Shown here in pieces: positions 1 through 10,948 of a DNA stretch of 32,000 nucleotides (its first letter is position 1; each line of letters begins with the position of its first letter). Under the pieces are notes generated by a model, which was not told the DNA's origin, did not search any database, and was given only the letters and a program-made list of their open reading frames with translations. Source of the DNA: Erysipelotrichaceae bacterium. Lineage in GTDB: Bacteria; Bacillota_I; Bacilli_A; Erysipelotrichales; Erysipelotrichaceae. The stretch lies in NCBI GenBank assembly GCA_963663995.1, contig OY760660.1:1500001-1532000 (forward strand). The letters are read 5' to 3'. Both the position numbers and the translations under genes were made by a program.

Positions 1-398
1 ACTATAATTTCAATAAACATCACTATACTGGATTAAGGGCTTACGGATCTTCAAAAACAGCTCAGCTATTGAGTGTTTTAGTATTAAATGAAGATAAAAA
101 TTATAAAAACATGAGATTTTTGTGCATGCATCCTGGGGATGTTAAAAGCGATATTGGCAAAAATAATGGGTTCTTGTATCGTCTATTTAGTAAATTATTT
201 ATACAACCAATGCTCAGAGATCCGAAAACAAGTGCGATAGCTATTCATTGTTTATTATCAGATCCATTTTATCGAGAGCAACATGAACAATTCTATCATT
301 TAACAATACCAGAAATCGCAGCGAATCATGCGCGAGATTATGTTAAAGCTCAAGAGCTTATCGAACTATCGAATAAACTAATAAATGATTTTATTTAA
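1..398 (+). CDS. SDR-family oxidoreductase, C-terminal part (the 5' end lies upstream of the window)
   Basis: Frame 3 is open from nt 3. The translation reads ...HHYTGLRAYGSSKTAQLL..., with the Tyr-x-x-x-Lys catalytic motif of short-chain dehydrogenases at nt 42-56, followed by MHPGDVKS (HPG-x-V). The TTG at 69 in the ORF track is therefore internal, not the start. Confidence 0.6.
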   Translation, partial: YNFNKHHYTGLRAYGSSKTAQLLSVLVLNEDKNYKNMRFLCMHPGDVKSDIGKNNGFLYRLFSKLFIQPMLRDPKTSAIAIHCLLSDPFYREQHEQFYHLTIPEIAANHARDYVKAQELIELSNKLINDFI

Positions 399-514: not shown

Positions 515-937
515 ATGCTATTTTGTGATATTAGTATTCAACATAGATACGGTAAAAATAAATTGGATGAAATGCTTTTTAAGTATGGTTTAGACTGGTC
601 AAGAATGACAGTTATTCTAGTCGTGTCAGAAGTACCAGGAATAGAGCAAAATAAATTAATTCCTTTTTTACAGACAGATAAAGCTAATGTTTCAAAATTG
701 TTGAAAAAGATGGTTAATGAGAACTTAATCATTTTAAATCATAATGCAATAGATAAACGAATTAACAAGTGTTATTTGACAGAAAAGGGCAATGAATTCG
801 TGCCTAAAATGAATGAAATTTTAAGTGCTTGGGAATCGATTCTTTTTTCAGGAATAAAAGAAGATGAGCTTCAAGTTTATCTAAAGGTTAGTCAGAAAGT
901 ATCAAATAATCTTTTGCCAAATTGGGAGAATAAATAA
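515..937 (+). CDS. MarR-family transcriptional regulator
   Basis: Winged-helix region (QNKLIPFLQTDKANVSKLLKKMVNENLIILNHNAIDKRINKCYLTEKG) of typical MarR length. The start is moved to the ATG at 515, preceded by AAAGAGG. The stop overlaps the next start (TAATG at 935-939). Confidence 0.8.
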   Translation: MLFCDISIQHRYGKNKLDEMLFKYGLDWSRMTVILVVSEVPGIEQNKLIPFLQTDKANVSKLLKKMVNENLIILNHNAIDKRINKCYLTEKGNEFVPKMNEILSAWESILFSGIKEDELQVYLKVSQKVSNNLLPNWENK

Positions 938-2712
938 TGGGAATTCAAGGGAAAACTCTTTATGGGTTAATTTTATCTGGTGCAAATAATATTGTAGTAA
1001 ATGAAAATTTGTTAAATAAGATAAATGTTTATCCAGTACCCGATGGGGATACAGGTACAAATTTATCGCTTACAATGAATCAGATTCTTCTTGAGGCAAA
1101 AGAATTTGAACATGTTTTTATGCAAATCGAAAATATTGCAGAGATTGCTCTTAAAAATGCATATGGTAATTCAGGTATGATTTTTGCAGAATATTTAAGT
1201 GGTATGTCAGATTCTTTAATAAACCAAAAAGAGATACTAAAAATTGATTTGATAAAAGCCTTTAAAAATGCGTATTCTAAAGCACATAAATCGGTAGCAC
1301 AACCTAAAGAGGGAACAATTTTAAGTGTTATGAAGATTTGGTCCGAATTATTAGAAACCTCAATACATGATGAATTAGAACACTTATTTAACAGTAATCT
1401 GGAAAAACTTTATAAGTCAGTCGAAAATACAAAAAATCAAATGAAAATTCTTAGAGACAATAATGTTGTAGATGCCGGCGCTATGGCTTTCTTCTTTTTT
1501 ATTGAAGGAATGACTAAGTTCTTGAAAAATGGATTATCAATGAATCTCGAATTCAAAGCATCAAAAATGGAATTGATTAGTGAACCGTTAAAGTCCCTTG
1601 ATATTGGTGCTTATAGATATTGTTGTCAATATCAAGTAAAAGGAAATATTGATGTTAAAGAACTAGAAAAAGAGATTAATCCATATGGTGATTCAATTGT
1701 CATCCATCAAGATAATTCAAACATTAGTATTCATATGCATGCAAATGATCCTGCAATGCTTATGCAAAAACTTTTATCTATAGGTCCTGTTCTAAAACAC
1801 AAGATAGACGACATGTATTTGCAAACTCATATGAAGCATAAGCCAAAATCCAAAATTGCTATTTTAACTGATTCTATTGCAGATATACCTTCTACACTAA
1901 TTGATGATAACCAAGTCGCTGTATTACCTTTAAATATTATTATCGACTCAATTGTCTATAAGGATAAAATCACGATGACAGCTGACTACTTCTATAATTA
2001 TCTTGATGATTTCAGATTAAGTCCAACATCTTCTCAACCTAATACTGAGAGTATAGAACGTTATTTAAAACAAATATTGAACAATTATGATGAAGTTATT
2101 GGAATTTTTGTATCGTCTGAAATGAGTGGTACTTACAGTAATATTTTAAAAGCATTAGATAAATTAGACACAAAGAATAAAAAGATAAAAATAATAGACT
2201 CAAAAAGTAATTCTGCTGCTCAAGGATTGATTGTTTACGAAACTGTATTAAAACGGAATGAAGGATTAAATTTTGACGACCTTGTTGAATATATTGAGAG
2301 ATTAATAGAGAAGTCTGAAATTTTTGTCAGTGTTAAAGATTTAAAGTACATGATTAAAGGTGGAAGAGTTTCAAAAGTGACAGGTCAATTACTTTCATTT
2401 ATTAAACTAAAACCTGTAATATCGATTGATAAAAATGGGAAAGGTATTATTCCTTATAAAACATTAAGTCAAAAAAGTGCTATTAATGCAATTTCAAAAA
2501 AACTATCTAATGATATGAAAGAATTTGGTATTTCAAAGTATTCGTTAGTTTATGCAGACAATGAAATAGATCTTAGCGAACTTAAGCGTGTTGCTGAAGA
2601 AATCATCGGCAAAAAACCTGAATATGTAGAGTGTATATCACCGATTGTTGGCTTGAATGCAGGTAAGGGTGCGTTTGCGATAGCGTACTTAAAGAATGGA
2701 GTAAGTAAATGA
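937..2712 (+). CDS. Dak2 (DhaL/FakA-like kinase) domain fused to a complete DegV (FakB-like fatty-acid-binding) domain
   Basis: N-terminus: VYPVPDGDTGTNL, AYGNSGMIF, PKEGTILSV and VVDAGAMAF, which are the Dak2/FakA nucleotide-binding motifs. Middle: YRYCCQY...GDSIVIHQD...ISIHMHANDP, resembling the FakA middle domain. C-terminal ~290 aa: KIAILTDSIADIP...TSSQPN...VSSEMSGTYSN...DSKSNSAAQG...LKYMIKGGRVSK, which are typical DegV motifs. Confidence 0.8.
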   Translation: MGIQGKTLYGLILSGANNIVVNENLLNKINVYPVPDGDTGTNLSLTMNQILLEAKEFEHVFMQIENIAEIALKNAYGNSGMIFAEYLSGMSDSLINQKEILKIDLIKAFKNAYSKAHKSVAQPKEGTILSVMKIWSELLETSIHDELEHLFNSNLEKLYKSVENTKNQMKILRDNNVVDAGAMAFFFFIEGMTKFLKNGLSMNLEFKASKMELISEPLKSLDIGAYRYCCQYQVKGNIDVKELEKEINPYGDSIVIHQDNSNISIHMHANDPAMLMQKLLSIGPVLKHKIDDMYLQTHMKHKPKSKIAILTDSIADIPSTLIDDNQVAVLPLNIIIDSIVYKDKITMTADYFYNYLDDFRLSPTSSQPNTESIERYLKQILNNYDEVIGIFVSSEMSGTYSNILKALDKLDTKNKKIKIIDSKSNSAAQGLIVYETVLKRNEGLNFDDLVEYIERLIEKSEIFVSVKDLKYMIKGGRVSKVTGQLLSFIKLKPVISIDKNGKGIIPYKTLSQKSAINAISKKLSNDMKEFGISKYSLVYADNEIDLSELKRVAEEIIGKKPEYVECISPIVGLNAGKGAFAIAYLKNGVSK

Positions 2713-3476
2713 TTAATGAGACATTGATTTTAATCATTATGATTTATTTTACAATTTGGTTTGTGATAAACACTAAATTAAAAAATGCGGGTCTAATTGA
2801 TATTGCATGGGGTTCTGGTTTTGTCGTATTAGCGATCACACAACTCATTAAATATCCTAGTTCACTAGGAGTAATCCTCTTTTTGATGGTAGCCATTTGG
2901 GGATTGAGATTAAGTTATCATATAGGGAAAAGAAACATAAATAAACCTGAAGATCACCGTTATCAAAAATTCCGAGAAGATTGGGGAAAATCCTATTTGC
3001 TTCGCTCAATTTTTCAAATTTATGGCTTACAAGCAATACTGATGTTAATTGTTTCGACTTCGTTTCTTGATGGGATAATGCAAGCAGAACTTAGATCTCT
3101 TATCGGTTTATTCTGTGGTATTACTTTATATATAGTTGGTTTAATCTTTGAAATTATTTCTGACTATCAAATGGAACAGTTTAAAAAAGATAAAAAGAAT
3201 AGAGGGAAGCTAATGACAAGTGGTTTATGGTCATTAAGTCATCATCCGAACTATTTTGGAGAAGCAACGCTGTGGCTTGGAATAGCCATATCTTCTTTAT
3301 CTCTTGGCTCAAGTTTTGTCGCAATGATAGGCGCATTTACGATTTTCTATTTAGTGAGATTTTTATCAGGCACACCATTAATGGAAAAGAGAATTCGTGA
3401 GTATCAAGGTTTTGAAGCTTATGCAAAAGTAGTACCAATTTTTTTTCCAAAATTGAAAGGAACACTAAAAAAATGA
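2709..3476 (+). CDS. DUF1295 / steroid-5-alpha-reductase-like integral membrane protein
   Basis: Multi-TM protein with WGLRLSYHIGKRN..PEDHRYQKFRE, SDYQMEQFKKD and GLWSLSHHPNYFGEATLWLG motifs. ATGA overlap with the upstream gene. Confidence 0.8.
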   Translation: MINETLILIIMIYFTIWFVINTKLKNAGLIDIAWGSGFVVLAITQLIKYPSSLGVILFLMVAIWGLRLSYHIGKRNINKPEDHRYQKFREDWGKSYLLRSIFQIYGLQAILMLIVSTSFLDGIMQAELRSLIGLFCGITLYIVGLIFEIISDYQMEQFKKDKKNRGKLMTSGLWSLSHHPNYFGEATLWLGIAISSLSLGSSFVAMIGAFTIFYLVRFLSGTPLMEKRIREYQGFEAYAKVVPIFFPKLKGTLKK

Positions 3477-3871
3477 AATTTTTTCTTCACTTTGCAGTAA
3501 CATTTGTTGTATTTCTCGGTGTAGATCTATTATGGTTAGGATTTATCGCAAAAGATATCTATGCTAATGCTATTGGGCATCTAATGAGTCCTAACGTTAA
3601 TTGGTCAGCCGCAATAATTTTCTATATTATTTTTGTTATTGGTATTTTATATTTCGTCGTTGAACCAGCACTTGTTCATCAAGATATCATTAAGCTTCTT
3701 ATTGCGTCAGCTCTGTTTGGATTTGTATCCTATGCAACATTTGATCTAACCAGTCTTGCTACTTTGAAAGATTGGCCATTAAATATAACAATAATTGATT
3801 TGATTTGGGGAACTAGTTTATCTTTGCTTGTTTCTAGTATTTCGTATTATTTAATCAGATTAATTTCATAA
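3473..3871 (+). CDS. DUF2177-family small membrane protein
   Basis: 132 aa with four predicted TM segments. The VDLLWLGFIAKDIY N-terminus and YATFDLT motif are characteristic of DUF2177. ATGA overlap with the DUF1295 gene. Confidence 0.6.
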   Translation: MKFFLHFAVTFVVFLGVDLLWLGFIAKDIYANAIGHLMSPNVNWSAAIIFYIIFVIGILYFVVEPALVHQDIIKLLIASALFGFVSYATFDLTSLATLKDWPLNITIIDLIWGTSLSLLVSSISYYLIRLIS

Positions 3872-3890
3872 TTAGTCAAGGGAGACAAAT

Positions 3891-4835
3891 ATGTTCGCAA
3901 AACCTAAACTTCTAGTAAGTGATTGTCTTGGATTTAAAGCATGTCGATATGACGCATCACAAATAAATGCACCACTCATACAAGCGTTAGAGCCTTATGT
4001 TGAGTATATAAGAGTATGTCCAGAAGTGGCGATAGGATTGCCGATACCTAGAGATAGTTTAAGGCTGATACAAGATCTTGATCATCCAAAACTTGTTGTC
4101 TCAAAATCAGGTAATGATTTAACGGATGATATGAAGAACTTTTCAAATAAATTTTTGGGTAATTTACCCATGGTTCATGGATTTTTGTTGAAAAGCAGAT
4201 CACCCTCATGTGGAACGAAAGATGTTAAAGTATATCATACGTTTGGAGTATCAAGTGCAATCGGTAAGGGTAAAGGAATGTTTGCCCAAGAAGTCTATAA
4301 TCACTATCCAAATCATCCTATTGAAGAAGAGGGTAGACTAACTAACTTTGCGATTAGAGAGGAATACTTTTATAAGATATTTACACTAGCTGAGTTTGAT
4401 GAGTCCGTTAAAACAGTGAATGATTTAGTTAAGTTTCATACAAAACATAAGTATGCGATGATGTCGTATCAACCCTTGAAAATGACGGAGTTAGGACAAA
4501 TTGTCGCAAAATCGAATAAGAAAACACAAAGAAATGATATTGAAGATTATAAAAAAAGTCTTTATCGATTACTTTCGGAAACTACGAGTATTGGACGTAA
4601 TGTAAACACGTTAAGTCACCTCTATGGTTATTTCAAAGATAATTTAAATGATTTAGAAAAGGAACATTACTTCACAACACTTAAATTATACAAAAACCAA
4701 CAAATTCCTTTTTCAGTACCCATTTCGATTATTAATTCGTGGGCGCTTCGTTTCAAAAATGATTACTTATTAAACCAATCAATTTTAAATCCCTTTCCAA
4801 AGGAACTCATGAATCTACATGATAGTGGAAATTAA
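3891..4835 (+). CDS. YbgA-like protein (DUF523/TudS-like N-terminal domain plus DUF1722 C-terminal domain)
   Basis: N-terminus KPKLLVSDCLGFKACRYDAS...VCPEVAIGLPIPR...KSRSPSCG (Cys-rich DUF523 pattern). C-terminal helical part HTKHKYAMMSYQP...HLYGYFK resembles DUF1722. RBS GGGAGA lies upstream of the ATG. Confidence 0.7.
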   Translation: MFAKPKLLVSDCLGFKACRYDASQINAPLIQALEPYVEYIRVCPEVAIGLPIPRDSLRLIQDLDHPKLVVSKSGNDLTDDMKNFSNKFLGNLPMVHGFLLKSRSPSCGTKDVKVYHTFGVSSAIGKGKGMFAQEVYNHYPNHPIEEEGRLTNFAIREEYFYKIFTLAEFDESVKTVNDLVKFHTKHKYAMMSYQPLKMTELGQIVAKSNKKTQRNDIEDYKKSLYRLLSETTSIGRNVNTLSHLYGYFKDNLNDLEKEHYFTTLKLYKNQQIPFSVPISIINSWALRFKNDYLLNQSILNPFPKELMNLHDSGN

Positions 4836-4849
4836 TCAATAAGGAGAAG

Positions 4850-5473
4850 ATGATGAATTTAAAAGAAAAATATATTGATGCATTAAATGAAATTGATCAT
4901 GATAAGTGCATATTAATTCTAGATGAGTATTTAAGTCATAAAGATGCAAATATTGATGATACTTTTGATTTAGTATCACATGCTCTTTCACTTTCCGTGA
5001 ATTGTGAGACTGATGAAATTTGGACAGAACATGCAAAAACACAAATTGTTAGATCAAGTATTGAACTATTATCAGTTCATATTGTGAAAAAAACGCCACT
5101 AAAAAATAACGAAAAAATAGCGGTAATTTGCCCAAATGGAGAATATCACGAATTAGGCGCACGATTTGTCAGCGAAGCTATACGCAAAGAAGGATATAAC
5201 GCGCTCTTCTTAGGTAATAGTTTGCCTAATAAAGATATTGTCCAACTGGTAAAAGCATCTGATTTAAAAGCAATTGTTTTCAGTATTTCCAACTTTTTTA
5301 CAATGCATTCAATAAATACCGTCATAGATGAAATAAATAAAATAAAACCTGATTTAAAGATTATTCTTGGTGGTCAAGCAATTAATCAAAATCCAGGACA
5401 AATCCATGGAGAAAATTGTGAGCTCTGCACGACTTTTGACCAATTGAAGAGTACATTGGAGAATTTAAAATGA
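4850..5473 (+). CDS. Stand-alone cobalamin-binding protein: helical cap plus Rossmann B12-binding domain, CarH/LitR-type, with no DNA-binding domain
   Basis: Contains E-Y-H-E-L-G, then exactly 41 residues to S-I-S, then 26 residues to GG. This matches the (E/D)xHxxG-41-SxV/T-22..27-GG cobalamin-binding signature. An N-terminal ~95-aa helical segment carries W-T-E-H. The real start may be the second ATG at 4853, which has better spacing to AAGGAG. Confidence 0.75.
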   Translation: MMNLKEKYIDALNEIDHDKCILILDEYLSHKDANIDDTFDLVSHALSLSVNCETDEIWTEHAKTQIVRSSIELLSVHIVKKTPLKNNEKIAVICPNGEYHELGARFVSEAIRKEGYNALFLGNSLPNKDIVQLVKASDLKAIVFSISNFFTMHSINTVIDEINKIKPDLKIILGGQAINQNPGQIHGENCELCTTFDQLKSTLENLK

Positions 5474-6612
5474 AATTATCGTTTAATATTGCAAGACGAT
5501 TTTTAGCTTATAACAAAGGTCAAACACTGCTGATTGTATTGGGTATAGCGATTGGAATATCAGTTCAAATTTTTATTGGTCTGCTCATTTCTGGTCTACA
5601 AGATTCACTAATAGATAGCACGATTGGTAGTAGTGCACACATTACAATCAGTTCTGAAACAAGAGGTGAAAACTTTAACTTCGATGCTGATTATTTAAGC
5701 GAACTAAAAGATATGGAAAATTTTACACATGTTGGAGTAAGTGTTAGTGGTCCAGCTTTTGGTGTCTATGATGAGAAAAGTCAATCCATACTTCTTAGAG
5801 GTTTAGATGATGAAGTGCTTGATATCAACAATTTAGAAGGCAAAATCATAGAAGGAACATTAGATCTATATAGAGGAATTGTTATTGGTAAAGGTTTAGC
5901 TGAACAGTTAGAGATTGGTGTGAATGATGAATTAATCATTCAAACAATTAATAACAATACTTATAATCTTAATGTATCTGGAATTGCTGATTTTAAAGTC
6001 GCAGCACTCAATGATAGTTGGGTTATCTCTAAACCAATTGTTGTCCAAAATATTTTAGAATTAGCGGATCAAATTTCAGCAATTGAAATACAAGTTGACG
6101 AAGTATTTAATGCTGATTTATACGCTGCGAGTTTAAGCATACCAACAGGTTTATCAGTAATTGATTGGAAAGAACAAAACGCAGAGTTACTTTCTGGTTT
6201 AAATGGACAAAGTGTTTCTACGTATATGATTCAAGTTTTCGTACTGGTTTCGGTCGTTTTAGGCATTGCTTCAACTCTTGCGATTACTGTGCTTCAAAAG
6301 TCTAAACAAATTGGAATCTTAAAAGCGATGGGAATTCCTGATACTCAAGCATCCCTTATTTTTATATTTCAAGGAATAATTCTAGGTTTCTTAGGTGGTC
6401 TTCTTGGGATGGGCTTAGGTTATGGTTTATTAGAAATGTTCTCAACATTTGCGAAGGGAGCAGATGGGAATCCAATTATTCCAATTACCTTTGATTTACA
6501 ATTTATTTTATTCTCAGGATCAATTGCAGTTATATCATCATTTATCGCTTCACTAATCCCTGCAAGAAAATCACTTAAACTAACAGTTATTGAGGTAATA
6601 CGTAATGGCTAA
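5470..6612 (+). CDS. ABC transporter permease, FtsX/MacB/LolCE-like
   Basis: N-terminal TM, a large extracytoplasmic domain, and a C-terminal FtsX-type 3-TM bundle (KSKQIGILKAMGIPD...). ATGA overlap with the upstream gene. Confidence 0.8.
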   Translation: MKLSFNIARRFLAYNKGQTLLIVLGIAIGISVQIFIGLLISGLQDSLIDSTIGSSAHITISSETRGENFNFDADYLSELKDMENFTHVGVSVSGPAFGVYDEKSQSILLRGLDDEVLDINNLEGKIIEGTLDLYRGIVIGKGLAEQLEIGVNDELIIQTINNNTYNLNVSGIADFKVAALNDSWVISKPIVVQNILELADQISAIEIQVDEVFNADLYAASLSIPTGLSVIDWKEQNAELLSGLNGQSVSTYMIQVFVLVSVVLGIASTLAITVLQKSKQIGILKAMGIPDTQASLIFIFQGIILGFLGGLLGMGLGYGLLEMFSTFAKGADGNPIIPITFDLQFILFSGSIAVISSFIASLIPARKSLKLTVIEVIRNG

Positions 6613-7282
6613 AATATTAGAGCTTAAAAACATTTATAAATCTTATGGTAAAACAGAAGTATTACATGGGATTAGTTTTGAATTAGAAGAAGGATCATTT
6701 ACATCGATTATTGGTCAATCAGGTTCTGGTAAAAGTACATTGTTGAACATACTTGGAACATTAGATAATGCAAGTCGAGGTGACGTCACAATTGATGGCA
6801 CAGATGTTAAAACTTTAAAGAGTAAAAAACTAGCAGAGTTAAGAAACAATACACTTGGTTTTATTTTTCAATTTCACCATTTACTTCCAGAGTTTTCTGC
6901 CATTGAAAATATCTTGATGCCGATAAAAATTCAAAAAGGTAAAGTCACAAAAGACGACTTAGCATGGGCTGAAGAACTGATTGAAGTTGTGGGATTAAGT
7001 AAGGTTAAAAATAATAATGCTTTAAAAATGTCTGGGGGTCAGCAACAACGTACGGCTATTGCACGGGCACTAATGAATAAACCTAAGATGATCCTCGCCG
7101 ATGAGCCTACAGGTAATTTGGATAGTGATACAGCAGAAAGTATTTATCAATTGATGCGATCTGTTAATGAAAAATATAATATAAGTTTTCTGATTATCAC
7201 ACATGATCAAGCGATTGCCCAAAAAGCAGATCGAATTATTGAGATCAAAGATGGGAAAATTGTACTTGATGTTTCTAAATAA
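6605..7282 (+). CDS. ABC transporter ATP-binding protein (MacB/LolD-like)
   Basis: Walker A GQSGSGKST, signature LSGGQQQR (MSGGQQQR here), Walker B ILADEPTGNLD, H-loop ITHD. It overlaps the permease gene by 8 nt. Confidence 0.9.
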   Translation: MAKILELKNIYKSYGKTEVLHGISFELEEGSFTSIIGQSGSGKSTLLNILGTLDNASRGDVTIDGTDVKTLKSKKLAELRNNTLGFIFQFHHLLPEFSAIENILMPIKIQKGKVTKDDLAWAEELIEVVGLSKVKNNNALKMSGGQQQRTAIARALMNKPKMILADEPTGNLDSDTAESIYQLMRSVNEKYNISFLIITHDQAIAQKADRIIEIKDGKIVLDVSK

Positions 7283-7352
7283 ATACTAGTCAAGCAACAT
7301 AGTTACTCTTCAATCCTTTTCATAAAGAAGAGCTTAAGATATTAATAGACAT

Positions 7353-7390
7353 AAAAAAACTGGAATTCTATGATTGATTTCCAGTTTTTA
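7353..7390. terminator. Bidirectional rho-independent terminator between the convergent ABC operon and nrdJ
   Basis: A-run, stem ACTGGAA (7359-7365), 13-nt loop, stem TTCCAGT (7379-7385), T-run. Confidence 0.6.
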
Positions 7391-7397
7391 GTTTATT

Positions 7398-9908
7398 TTA
7401 TAATCCGCACTTAAGTTGAGCATTACAGTTGGTACATGTATTACATCCACCAATTTCCTCAACGGTACCTTCTAAACAGATAGGACAGATATCACCAACT
7501 TCAACACCGATATTTCGATCTTGTCTGTCAGCTCTCAAATCTGTTTTCTTTTCTTCAGGTTGTTGTTCTTTGACATTAACACCGAAGTCATGAACTAAGT
7601 CCATTTGAGCCCAGTTGTTATCACTGTCATTAGTAAGTGTTAGAACTTGAGAATCACGTGATCCATCAACGTAAACAGTTCCACCTTTTGCTTTACCATC
7701 ATATAATCTTTGATAAATACGTTGTACTTGTCTTACTGAGAATCCACGAGGTGCATTAACTGTTTTAGAGATTGATGAATCAATCCATCTTTGAATTGCA
7801 CATTGAACATCAGCATGCTCTTCAGGAGCTAAGTCCATAGCTGCGACAAAGTAGTCAGGTAAATTTTCACGTGTATATTCAGGGTTAAGTTTCAAGAAGT
7901 CATCGACGATTTGGGCATTTACTTCAATGAATTTGCCTAAGCGTCCTGAACGATAATAACTGAATGAGAAGTAAGGTTCTAAACCAGTCGACACACCGAC
8001 CATAGTTCCGGTAGAACCAGTCGGAGCGATTGTTAATAAGTGTGAGTTACGGATACCGTGTTTTAGAACTTCTTGTCTAATTTCTTCACTCATTTCTTTC
8101 ATATAACCAGTGTTAATGAAATCTTCACGAGATTCTAAGAAAGGGAATGAACCTTTTTCAGAAGCTAATTTAATTGAAGTCATATAAGCGGCTTCAGCGA
8201 TCGTCTTAAAGACTTGATCAATAGTTTTTAATGATTCAGGTGAACCATAACGAGTACGTGACCAAATTAGTAAGTCATGTAAACCCATAACGCCTAAACC
8301 AACACGACGTTCGCCTAAAGCTTGTGTCTTATTAGGTTCTAAGAAATAAGGAGTATCATCGATAACGTTATCTTGCATACGTACGGTTAAGGAAACAGTA
8401 TTCGCTAATTCTTCATAGAGAATTTCGCCAGTTTCACGATTAACAAAGTTAGCTAGGTTTACAGCCGCTAAGTTACATACTGAATATGGAGCTAATGGTT
8501 GTTCGCCACAAGGGTTTGTTGCGACAACTTTTTGTCCATAAGATTTAGCGTTTGTCATATCGTTAGCATTATCAATGAAGAAGATACCAGGTTCTGCAGA
8601 ATAAGTCGCACAGAAGTTGATTAAATCCCAAAGATCGCGTGCTTTGATGGTGCGATAAACTTTAACAGGATATCCCATTTCAGCCCATTCACGAACATCA
8701 CCAATCTCATGCCATCTAAGATCATAAACTTCTTTTTCCTCTTTCGAGAAGTTTTGAAGGTCTGGGAAACGTAATTCGAAATCACCATCGTTTTTAACTG
8801 CATCCATGAATTCTTTGGTTAGGGTAACGGAAATGTTAGCACCAGTTAAGAATTCAGGGTTAAGTACTTCTAAAGTACCACCATCAGCTAGTTTTTCACG
8901 AGCGTGATTAATAATATGTTGAGCAGCAGTTTTGCTTTCAGCTAACTCTTCATACATTTCTCTTTCTAAACGAGAGAATTCTTTATATTTAATATGCTTT
9001 TCAGCTTCTTTACGAATTTGTTCATCATTTGAATTTTCAATAAGCCATTTTAAGACTTTAGCATTTTGCATTTTCGAAATAATGAATTCAATAATATCTG
9101 GATGCCAGTCAGCCATCATGATCATTTGAGCACCACGACGTGAGCCACCTTGTTCAACAAGATGAGTCAAGTTAGCTAAATCATTTAACCAACTAACCGC
9201 ACCAGATGATTTACCACCAACCCCTTTTGCAGGGGCACCTTTTGGACGTAGGGTAGAACCATTAGTCCCAACACCACCTCCACGTGACATGATTTCCATA
9301 ACCTCTTTACGATGTTCAGAAATACCACCACGTGAGTCATGCACAAATGGCATAACGAAGCAGTTGAAGTAAGTAACTTGTGTCCCAGAACCGGCACCAA
9401 ATAAAACACGTCCAGCAGGAATAGTGTTCATCTTTTCTAATTGTTCAGAAAAGAGTTTTCCAAATTTTACTTTATCATCATCAGACTTCTCAGTAGAGGC
9501 TAATGCGTTACCGACACGGCGTGCAATTTGTTCATAATATATTTCAACGGGTTTATCAACTTGATGTAGAGGACGCTTAATAAGGCCGGTTTCGGCTTCG
9601 ATTTCATCATCTAATGATCCTCTAAACTCTTCTTCAAGTACGATTGAAACGATTTCATTTTCAATAGCTTGAACAGTTCCAATACCGCGTGAAGGGAATT
9701 TAGGGTCTTCTTTTACAACTGTAACAACGATATCACCCACACCTAAAGTTTTATGACTACGGTCTTTTTGTGCATAACGGTCAAGCATGACTAAACGAGA
9801 CACACCTTGGTGACTTAAGTTATCATCCTTTTCAATTGGATAAATATGCGGAAAATGCGTACTGATGTCCGCATTCAGCTTTTGTACTGTTACATCTGAA
9901 TACTTCAT
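7398..9908 (-). CDS. nrdJ: Class II (adenosylcobalamin-dependent) ribonucleotide reductase
   Basis: 836 aa with the RNR active-site region TNPCGEQPL...CNL. There is no ATP-cone and no adjacent beta subunit gene. The Cys-rich C-terminal tail ICPICLEGTVEEIGGCNTCTNCNAQLKCGL is typical of class II enzymes. It lies next to B12 salvage genes. Confidence 0.9.
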   Translation of the reverse strand: MKYSDVTVQKLNADISTHFPHIYPIEKDDNLSHQGVSRLVMLDRYAQKDRSHKTLGVGDIVVTVVKEDPKFPSRGIGTVQAIENEIVSIVLEEEFRGSLDDEIEAETGLIKRPLHQVDKPVEIYYEQIARRVGNALASTEKSDDDKVKFGKLFSEQLEKMNTIPAGRVLFGAGSGTQVTYFNCFVMPFVHDSRGGISEHRKEVMEIMSRGGGVGTNGSTLRPKGAPAKGVGGKSSGAVSWLNDLANLTHLVEQGGSRRGAQMIMMADWHPDIIEFIISKMQNAKVLKWLIENSNDEQIRKEAEKHIKYKEFSRLEREMYEELAESKTAAQHIINHAREKLADGGTLEVLNPEFLTGANISVTLTKEFMDAVKNDGDFELRFPDLQNFSKEEKEVYDLRWHEIGDVREWAEMGYPVKVYRTIKARDLWDLINFCATYSAEPGIFFIDNANDMTNAKSYGQKVVATNPCGEQPLAPYSVCNLAAVNLANFVNRETGEILYEELANTVSLTVRMQDNVIDDTPYFLEPNKTQALGERRVGLGVMGLHDLLIWSRTRYGSPESLKTIDQVFKTIAEAAYMTSIKLASEKGSFPFLESREDFINTGYMKEMSEEIRQEVLKHGIRNSHLLTIAPTGSTGTMVGVSTGLEPYFSFSYYRSGRLGKFIEVNAQIVDDFLKLNPEYTRENLPDYFVAAMDLAPEEHADVQCAIQRWIDSSISKTVNAPRGFSVRQVQRIYQRLYDGKAKGGTVYVDGSRDSQVLTLTNDSDNNWAQMDLVHDFGVNVKEQQPEEKKTDLRADRQDRNIGVEVGDICPICLEGTVEEIGGCNTCTNCNAQLKCGL

Positions 9909-9984
9909 ATTAAAAACCCCTCTTGATTGATACGTTTTATTTTATCATGAACCCTTATATAGCATTCATGAAAATGATTTACAT

Positions 9985-10446
9985 TTATAACTCTTTTGAA
10001 AAAATATAATCTGATAATCGATTCATATATTTTAGTATATCTAAATTTATACTCTGTGATAATGAATAAGCAATGATAGTTCTCTCGACTGTACGAACCT
10101 TAGCTCTCAACACATGTAAATGAGCTTTTAATTCATCATCGAAAGGGAAAATAAATTGATGCGTTAAATTCTGTTTTTTTGCGATTTCATCTTCGAAATA
10201 GTGGATATGTTCATTTAAATCAATATCAACTAAGTAGCCTGAAAGAACACTACTTATTTGATAGAGGTCTTGAACAATCATTTCCCATTCCTGTTTATCA
10301 AGCTGATGTTTGGATTGGAAGTAAATGATCTCACTCGATAATACGTCTAACTCACCAATAAGGTTTATTAAAGGATCGCTTTTGGATAAGCGTTTATTTT
10401 TGATATCAGTTTGACCAGTGTCGCCTTTTTTAGTAGTGATTGTCAT
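9985..10446 (-). CDS. PduO-type ATP:cob(I)alamin adenosyltransferase
   Basis: The N-terminus TKKGDTGQTDI...RLSKSDPLINLIGELDVLSSEI matches the TxxGDxGxT / ExxGxxDEL pattern of PduO-type adenosyltransferases. 153 aa. Confidence 0.75.
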   Translation of the reverse strand: MTITTKKGDTGQTDIKNKRLSKSDPLINLIGELDVLSSEIIYFQSKHQLDKQEWEMIVQDLYQISSVLSGYLVDIDLNEHIHYFEDEIAKKQNLTHQFIFPFDDELKAHLHVLRAKVRTVERTIIAYSLSQSINLDILKYMNRLSDYIFSKEL

Positions 10447-10948
10447 ATTTTGCTTTTCTCATCAGCTTTTCTACAACTAAGTAGAGTGGCTTGTATAAGA
10501 GTATTATAAGGATATAATTGCTTGTTGCGTGAACTAAATCAAAAAGCAGGCCACGTATCCAATATATGTATCCCATCGTAAACCCATATAACAGTGCATT
10601 TTGAAGAGCGAATAGAAAGCCAAACATAAAACCAAACAAAGCTCCAAGAATGGCCCAAATTTGTTCTCTATCTCTTGAGAAAGCTTTAAATATTTGGACA
10701 ATAATCATCCATAATGTCCATATCCATAGGTAAGCAATAACCCAATCTCCAAAGCCCCAAACTAGTGCTTCTAAAATAGTGAATATAAAAACCACAATCA
10801 GCGACTCTTTCCAAGTAATAAATTGAGCAATGATCAAGAACCACAAGGTTACAAGTTCAACATTGGGAAGCGAGGCTGCAGCTATTTGTATCACAAAGGC
10901 GGTGGCGGCGATAAGGGCTAATAAGACCCAACGCTTTAAAGAACGCAT
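10430..10948 (-). CDS. Small polytopic membrane protein, ECF-transporter S-component-like (candidate cobalamin-specific, CbrT-like)
   Basis: 172 aa, about 5-6 TM segments, aromatic/Gly-rich. It sits between the DUF4430 and adenosyltransferase genes, downstream of a cobalamin riboswitch. The substrate assignment comes from context only. Confidence 0.45.
   Translation of the reverse strand: MRSLKRWVLLALIAATAFVIQIAAASLPNVELVTLWFLIIAQFITWKESLIVVFIFTILEALVWGFGDWVIAYLWIWTLWMIIVQIFKAFSRDREQIWAILGALFGFMFGFLFALQNALLYGFTMGYIYWIRGLLFDLVHATSNYILIILLYKPLYLVVEKLMRKAKYDNHY

Follow-up and report, generated by a model that had tools for sequence, protein, structure and literature searches.

We examined a 32,000-nucleotide stretch of the genome of an Erysipelotrichaceae bacterium (GenBank assembly GCA_963663995.1, contig OY760660.1, positions 1,500,001 to 1,532,000 of the forward strand; the whole stretch is called the window below) and find that a gene at positions 937-2712 on its + strand probably encodes a self-contained fatty acid kinase, a reading to which we give a probability of roughly 70%. 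The fatty acid kinase of Firmicutes consists of two proteins, a kinase, FakA, and a separate FakB (DegV) protein that presents the fatty acid. The gene described here carries the nucleotide-binding and middle domains of a FakA and a complete DegV domain in one uninterrupted reading frame, and its catalytic and ligand-binding residues are conserved throughout a widespread family of such fusions.

A FakA-like kinase joined to a complete DegV domain

The fused gene and its domains are placed as follows.

937..2712, + strand: putative fused fatty acid kinase gene, 591 amino acids (Dak2, FakA middle domain and full DegV), from the open reading frame (ORF), Pfam, NCBIfam, an AlphaFold2 model and fold matches
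1033..1515, + strand: Dak2 (DhaL-like) ATP/Mg domain, residues 33-193, from Pfam and alignment
1612..1830, + strand: FakA middle (dimerisation and metal-site) domain, residues 226-298, from Pfam and alignment
1852..2694, + strand: complete DegV/FakB fatty-acid-binding domain, residues 306-586, from Pfam, NCBIfam, alignment, fold and profile comparison

The frame is free of stops across all 591 residues, and Pfam recovers in turn Dak2 (E 4.9e-30), FakA-like_M (PF21645; E 1.2e-17) and DegV (PF02645; E 2.9e-62), the last aligned over profile positions 1-279 of 280. A first-pass annotation, made from the sequence alone, had proposed this same order and suggested a scan with profile hidden Markov models; the scan bears it out. 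The Dak2 and DegV motifs named by that annotation are all present (residues 36, 77, 125, 177, 365, 396 and 474), and the middle domain, which it had set at residues ~200-300, falls under the FakA-like_M match.

We next asked what the C-terminal part of the protein is. Pfam FakA-like_C (PF13684) reaches only 32 bits there, a shadow under the 211-bit DegV match, and the NCBIfam DegV model TIGR00762 scores 229 bits with a cut-off of 99.7. The canonical FakA/YloV model TIGR03599 also gives 229 bits, which is below its cut-off of 396, and aligns over model positions 4-407 of 530 only; a second FakA model, NF038248, scores 133 with a cut-off of 975. In profile-profile comparison (hhalign), the fused C-domain matches free DegV proteins with a score of 500 (probability 100%) and FakA_C with a score of 38.5 (probability 61%). 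An AlphaFold2 model built on an alignment of 87 diverse homologues has a mean predicted local distance difference test (pLDDT) value of 90.5 and a predicted template-modelling (pTM) score of 0.81, with pLDDT below 50 only in linker residues 210-217. Its C-domain superimposes on whole, fatty-acid-loaded FakB/DegV crystal structures with template-modelling (TM) scores of 0.84-0.91 over ~285 columns, and its N-domain on S. aureus FakA_N with a TM score of 0.90. Pfam, NCBIfam, fold and hhalign agree that the C-terminal part is a true DegV domain, as the first-pass annotation had held. The truncated FakA_C domain, at which FakB docks, is absent from this protein, and a full DegV domain stands in its place.

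The fused frame recurs across many phyla

From a protein search we took the best 120 rows, namely the query and 119 homologues at 41-79% identity. All 120, representing more than 100 protein clusters, show the same three Pfam families at ~590 residues. The matches come from Erysipelotrichaceae, Clostridia and other groups, and are called 'DegV family protein' where they are named at all. Such a frame could arise artificially if a sequencing or assembly frameshift had joined two genes, or could be an ordinary FakA with a misread C-domain. Frameshift and misassembly are excluded because the same fused frame recurs, uninterrupted, in the 119 full-length homologues and in many independent genomes, with conservation over hundreds of genomes, and a misread C-domain is opposed by the end-to-end match to the DegV profile and by the preference of both hhalign and fold comparison for a full DegV domain; we regard the probability of an artefact as negligible. 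We take the gene to be genuine and ordinary-looking, encoding a predicted variant form of the enzyme.

Of 20 further genomes from the window's genus, 18 match at E <= 1e-60, mostly with a full-length fused frame, and the fusions fall into two subfamilies, 51-72% and ~35% identical to the window's protein. A search of 40 relatives finds the two subfamilies scattered across the species of one genus, with both present in none of the listed genomes; the second subfamily (~35% identity) has Ser at the FakB His position discussed below and a DUF1295 gene next after the fusion. One locus of the same genus (L036, G020:C48) carries a fusion gene interrupted by a 1.66-kb insertion, which encodes a 495-amino-acid DDE transposase on the opposite strand and has a perfect 40-bp direct repeat at both flanks (2346-2385 and 4010-4049).

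The first-pass annotation had also raised the question of how widespread this architecture is; it occurs in part of its own phylum and recurs in many phyla of Gram-negative bacteria. Of 299 genomes sampled evenly from the phylum, each at least 90% complete, 31 carry the fusion, mostly within five families. A wider scan, with one genome per species, recovers contiguous full-length fusions at 24-34% identity in Bacteroidales, Cytophagia, Syntrophales, Desulfohalobiaceae, Treponema, Acidobacteriota, Gemmatimonadota, Xanthomonadales, other Proteobacteria, Eisenbacteria and Krumholzibacteriota. In proteobacterial loci (L051:4371-5024, L052:7128-7931 and L053:7305-7970), the gene just 5′ of the fusion has a terminal T2SSB (type II secretion protein B) domain.

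Catalytic and ligand-binding residues are retained

S. aureus FakA holds ADP and two Mg ions through N32, D38, D40, T41, N82 and D185 (PMC9136124), which align with N30, D36, D38, T39, N78 and D179 of the fusion. The Cys/His/His metal site of the FakA middle domain, required for activity in published FakA work, is matched by C229, H266 and H268 (C240, H282 and H284 in S. aureus; C244, H289 and H291 in S. suis). In the DegV domain, S365, S397 and R477 align with FakB2 T61, S93 and R170, which are carboxylate-binding and catalytic residues. All of these residues are invariant in the 119 close homologues. Across a more diverse set of 87 fusions, with identity down to 23%, D36, D38, T39, N78, D179, C229, H266, H268, S397 and R477 are invariant in 87 of 87 and N30 is kept in at least 90%; S397 and R477 are also invariant in 16 of 16 free DegV proteins.

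A different picture holds at the surface where FakB meets FakA. The docking Arg (R202 in FakB2, R205 in FakB1) is completely conserved in FakB and is a key residue for FakA binding, according to published FakB work. In the window's fusion this position is L510. Leu occupies it in 40 of the 87 fusions, Phe in 35, Arg in 4 and Lys in 1; in the 16 free DegV proteins it is Arg in 13 and Lys in 3. Judged from these alignments, the loss of the docking Arg is what would be expected once the carrier need not reach FakA by diffusion.

The fusion is an addition to the canonical kinase

The window's genome, complete at 1.95 Mb, encodes a canonical FakA-type protein (a 547-amino-acid open frame, 544 from the first Met), two free DegV genes besides the fusion, and one PlsY. 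The first-pass annotation had proposed looking for canonical fakA and fakB genes, and both types are present. Among the 299 sampled genomes, 287 score above the cut-off of the canonical FakA model, and at E <= 1e-90 a canonical FakA-type match is present in each of the 31 genomes with the fusion. Because every carrier keeps this match, the fusion is an addition in this phylum and not a replacement. The gene complement of the window's genome indicates an extra, presumably self-contained system alongside the usual two-protein kinase.

The Dak2 and middle domains could also serve the two free DegV proteins, which would make the protein a second FakA with a built-in FakB. Isolated FakA N+L domains do keep some activity with FakB (PMC9136124), but the FakA_C groove that binds FakB is missing here and a canonical FakA is found in every sampled fusion-bearing genome, so that we consider this explanation very improbable.

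To place the fusions relative to canonical FakA, we built an unrooted tree on the kinase and middle domains of 47 fusions and 25 canonical FakA proteins. The two groups split at a single branch with a Shimodaira-Hasegawa-like approximate likelihood-ratio test (SH-aLRT) value of 98. When DhaL serves as outgroup, the fusions group as a clade (SH-aLRT 99), the outgroup branch is saturated and the root falls in an unresolved canonical region. These trees suggest a single origin of the fusions. Descent of canonical FakA from a fused ancestor is compatible with the unrooted tree; the DhaL root lies on the canonical side, on that saturated branch. In profile comparison, FakA_C shows no greater similarity to the DegV domain of the fusions than to free DegV proteins.

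Distant members of the family precede plsY

PlsY is an acyltransferase that consumes acyl-phosphate. In four distant loci (L045, L048, L060 and L067, with fusions ending near 9776-9785), plsY lies immediately 3′ of the fusion on the same strand; the hosts are Xanthomonadales, Cytophagia and two unclassified bacteria. The position of plsY directly downstream of these distant fusions is our best evidence, though indirect, that acyl-phosphate is the product of the family, and it suggests that Gram-negative phyla have a route from fatty acid kinase to PlsY.

Together, the invariant catalytic and ligand residues and the distant members upstream of plsY uphold, at the level of sequence, the single-chain fatty acid kinase that the first-pass annotation had predicted.

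Linkage to DUF1295 and DUF2177 membrane proteins

The fusion lies within a co-directional run of genes from the MarR gene to the ABC ATPase; the dehydrogenase gene at 3..398 lies upstream of this run.

3..398, + strand: short-chain dehydrogenase gene, 3′ end only, with a YGSSK motif, from sequence; the fragment has no Pfam match
516..937, + strand: MarR-family regulator; ORF listed from TTG 467, likely start ATG 516 after AAAGAGG
2709..3476, + strand: DUF1295 membrane protein (steroid 5-alpha-reductase/ICMT-like), from Pfam; also adjoins fusions in other genomes
3473..3871, + strand: DUF2177 small membrane protein with overlapping start, from Pfam; also adjoins fusions in other genomes
3891..4835, + strand: DUF523 (2-thiouracil desulfurase family) and DUF1722 protein (YbgA-like), from Pfam; same cluster in genome G250
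4850..5473, + strand: B12-binding domain protein without a DNA-binding domain, from Pfam; kept with the module in genomes G010 and G227
5470-6612, + strand: FtsX/MacB-type permease, from Pfam
6605-7282, + strand: ATPase of an ATP-binding cassette (ABC) system, last gene of the co-directional run, from Pfam

One base is common to the MarR stop codon and the fusion's ATG, an arrangement indicative of translational coupling, and the fusion stop overlaps the start of the DUF1295 gene (ATGA), which is the sole DUF1295 gene of the genome. A consensus scan finds no terminator-like sites in the + strand intergenic gaps between 398 and 7282; two + strand sites lie inside genes, at 3271-3290 (DUF1295) and 4168-4180 (DUF523-DUF1722). 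Co-translation with the MarR gene and the membrane proteins, proposed in the first-pass annotation, stands as far as the overlaps and the shared base go; the coupling to MarR is confined to the closest relative. A conserved partnership with MarR was considered and is rejected, since the gene lies beside the fusion in that relative only. Upstream, an inverted repeat at 464-482 of the window (TAGTTGT-TTTAT-ACAACAA, 7-bp arms with one mismatch) lies 35 nucleotides 5′ of ATG 516; it is a possible operator, though short enough to occur by chance in AT-rich DNA.

DUF1295, DUF2177 or both adjoin the fusion in almost every relative and in both subfamilies, in varying order, and the adjacency extends to Oscillospiraceae, Anaerorhabdus, Treponema and Ca. 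Saccharicenans, down to 30% identity. That the linkage persists despite shuffled gene order points to functional coupling between the fusion and these two membrane proteins. The first-pass annotation had suspected a dedicated lipid substrate, and this constant linkage, along with the retention of a canonical FakA and two free DegV proteins, supports it. The trio of B12-binding protein, FtsX permease and ABC ATPase (window 4850-7282) travels with the fusion, DUF1295 and DUF2177 in G010 (L026:12565-14994) and, in a different order, in G227 (L134:7554-9998), where the genes run DUF1295, DUF2177, B12-binding protein, FtsX, ABC ATPase, fusion.

The DUF1295 protein aligns to steroid 5-alpha-reductase structures, and a DUF1295-like fungal protein is an ene-reductase (published work); by analogy, DUF1295 is a probable NADPH ene-reductase-type enzyme. 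Its assignment as the furan-fatty-acid enzyme UfaO was rejected, as UfaO belongs to DUF1365.

The gene context also bears on a further possibility, that the protein acts chiefly as a lipid sensor or regulator and carries no flux as a kinase; its signal would go to MarR, to the B12-binding protein or to the ABC pump. FakA activity affects virulence regulation in S. aureus (published work), and the fusion is translationally coupled to a MarR gene; against this, the catalytic residues are invariant as a complete set across many phyla, plsY is adjacent in distant members, and the nearest relative alone keeps the MarR gene. We think such a role improbable.

A light-response gene context in relatives

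A preprint describes DegV, DUF1295 and DUF2177 as characteristic of heliorhodopsin neighbourhoods and reports Dak2-DegV fusions there (bioRxiv 10.1101/2021.02.16.431466). The heliorhodopsin model (PF18761) matches 38 of our 299 related genomes, 25 of the 31 with the fusion and 13 of the 268 without it. In G250, a cluster on one strand (locus L132 = G250:C7:23000-36000, positions 3748-10745) comprises a regulator with XRE helix-turn-helix, B12-binding_2 and B12-binding domains, a heliorhodopsin, the fusion and DUF1295, followed by a photolyase-like gene and then by DUF523-DUF1722 and DUF2177. A MutY gene lies upstream of this light-response-looking cluster. DUF1295, DUF2177 and DUF1365 genes are induced by singlet oxygen in Chlamydomonas (PMC4067076). 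The genome from which the window comes retains the B12-binding and DUF523-DUF1722 genes in the run with the fusion, and it carries a photolyase-like gene at another site (G000:C1:210260-210718, within a 429-amino-acid frame). These arrangements suggest that the module sits in a light-response gene context in related bacteria.

A more specific proposal is that the fusion, DUF1295 and DUF2177 form a membrane-lipid repair route triggered by light or photo-oxidation. Heliorhodopsin or proteins of the B12 photoreceptor type would switch on the route along with photolyase. The built-in DegV domain would catch fatty acids that had been damaged or released, the membrane-bound, ene-reductase-like DUF1295 protein would process them, and the attached kinase would re-activate them as acyl-phosphate for re-insertion into phospholipid. 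We offer this route tentatively and think it more probably wrong than right. If true, it would give heliorhodopsin a concrete lipid-linked output, and it would offer a natural model, in one chain, of the active Fak complex, whose structure is still unsolved.

A proposed mechanism, and the evidence weighed

From the observed architecture, residue conservation, paralogy and gene linkage, we infer the kinase activity of the fusion, its product and substrate class, and the possible routes of transfer in cis or in trans. The DegV domain would draw a free fatty acid, or a close derivative, from the membrane and hold it, carboxylate exposed, via S365, S397 and R477. The Dak2 domain would bind ATP and two Mg ions via N30, D36, D38, T39, N78 and D179 and, tethered by a flexible linker (residues ~198-226), would pass the gamma-phosphate to the fatty acid to form acyl-phosphate. 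Two chains would be joined by the middle domain, which carries the Cys-His-His metal site. Because this domain would hold the chains together, transfer could occur within one chain or across the dimer, and the kinase is probably homodimeric. With its carrier covalently attached and the docking Arg lost, the fusion would be insulated from the housekeeping FakA/FakB pool and would have its own pathway. That pathway would include the co-translated membrane proteins DUF1295 and DUF2177, with which its dedicated lipid is most likely handled, and, in related bacteria, the light and photo-oxidative-stress gene set.

Several points weigh against this reading. N574 of the window's fusion replaces the His of the FakB carboxylate hydrogen-bond network (FakB2 H266, FakB1 H270), and Asn is the commonest residue at this position among the 87 fusions (Asn in 62, His in 19, Ser in 5); the position varies among the 16 free DegV proteins too (His in 9, Asn in 3). 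The His-to-Asn change means that head-group chemistry may differ in the window's clade. FakB1 R205 is a membrane-encounter residue as well as a docking residue (published FakB work) and, by analogy, its loss may mean that lipid loading of the fusion requires a partner. The counts of heliorhodopsin in genomes with and without the fusion are not phylogenetically independent. The light link is only indirect in the window's genome, because this complete genome has no match to PF18761 and its B12-binding protein has no DNA-binding domain. Finally, the literature we searched yielded no biochemical data on any member of the fusion family.

The Asn substitution also favours a different substrate, a lipid other than an ordinary fatty acid whose product would go to DUF1295/DUF2177 and not to PlsY. 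Such a lipid could be a fatty acid in photo-oxidised or keto/enone form, an isoprenoid or retinoid acid, or a lipid hydroxyl. In keeping with such a substrate, DUF1295 occupies the directly downstream slot that PlsY holds in distant fusions, DUF1295 is akin to ene-reductases, and the module is associated with heliorhodopsin and singlet-oxygen genes. Against it stand the invariant carboxylate-binding Ser and catalytic Arg of FakB, the close resemblance of the fold to fatty-acid-loaded FakB structures (TM 0.84-0.91), and the plsY linkage of members of the same family. We regard an unusual lipid as unlikely and favour a fatty acid as the substrate of the kinase.

Significance

How FakA and FakB are arranged in their active complex is in dispute, and its structure has yet to be solved (PMC11617999); a fusion in which the lipid carrier is covalently fixed at the position of FakA_C is a ready object with which to settle how the ATP site and the fatty acid come together. 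In reviews, Fak is presented as a two-protein strategy of Gram-positive bacteria (PMC10146087). Fusions are found widely, with plsY linkage in several Gram-negative phyla and as an add-on in Bacillota. Two uncharacterised membrane families and the function of heliorhodopsin also become open to testing through the linkage of the fusion to DUF1295 and DUF2177, which in relatives extends to heliorhodopsin itself, a regulator of the B12 photoreceptor type and photolyase.

Comparison with known systems

Compared with FakA and FakB (S. suis complex PDB 7W7H; FakA_N 7RM7; FakB2 4X9X), the fusion has identical Dak2 ATP/Mg ligands, the same Cys/His/His metal site in its middle domain, and a DegV fold with the same carboxylate Ser and catalytic Arg as FakB. 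It differs in being one chain with a full 280-residue DegV domain where FakA has a truncated C-domain, in lacking the FakB-docking groove, in having L510 for the docking Arg and Asn for the FakB His, and in falling under the cut-offs of both FakA models (TIGR03599 and NF038248).

The architecture is not new, having already been catalogued and mentioned in the literature. Dak2-DegV fusions are credited to Erni et al. 2006 in the heliorhodopsin preprint (bioRxiv 10.1101/2021.02.16.431466), and the proteins called 'DegV family protein' at NCBI have an identical architecture. The fusion described here belongs to this group. It likewise shares with the DegV/DUF1295/DUF2177 trio of heliorhodopsin neighbourhoods the adjacency of the same three families. 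Unlike that trio, it resides in a genome without heliorhodopsin and is joined to MarR, DUF523-DUF1722, a B12-binding protein and a MacB-type ABC pump.

The plsY-linked Gram-negative forms (Xanthomonadales, Cytophagia and others) are three-domain proteins in the same clade relative to canonical FakA. They are 24-29% identical to the window's fusion and are followed by plsY and not by DUF1295/DUF2177, and most of them, in contrast to the window's fusion, keep His at the FakB His position. A more remote parallel is found in the dihydroxyacetone kinases (DhaK-DhaL, and the single-chain DAK), which also pair a Dak2/DhaL nucleotide domain with an EDD-fold substrate domain and also exist in fused and split forms. 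DhaL models score only ~27 bits on the fusion, DhaL is a very distant outgroup, and the substrate domain of the fusion is a lipid-binding DegV domain, not DhaK.

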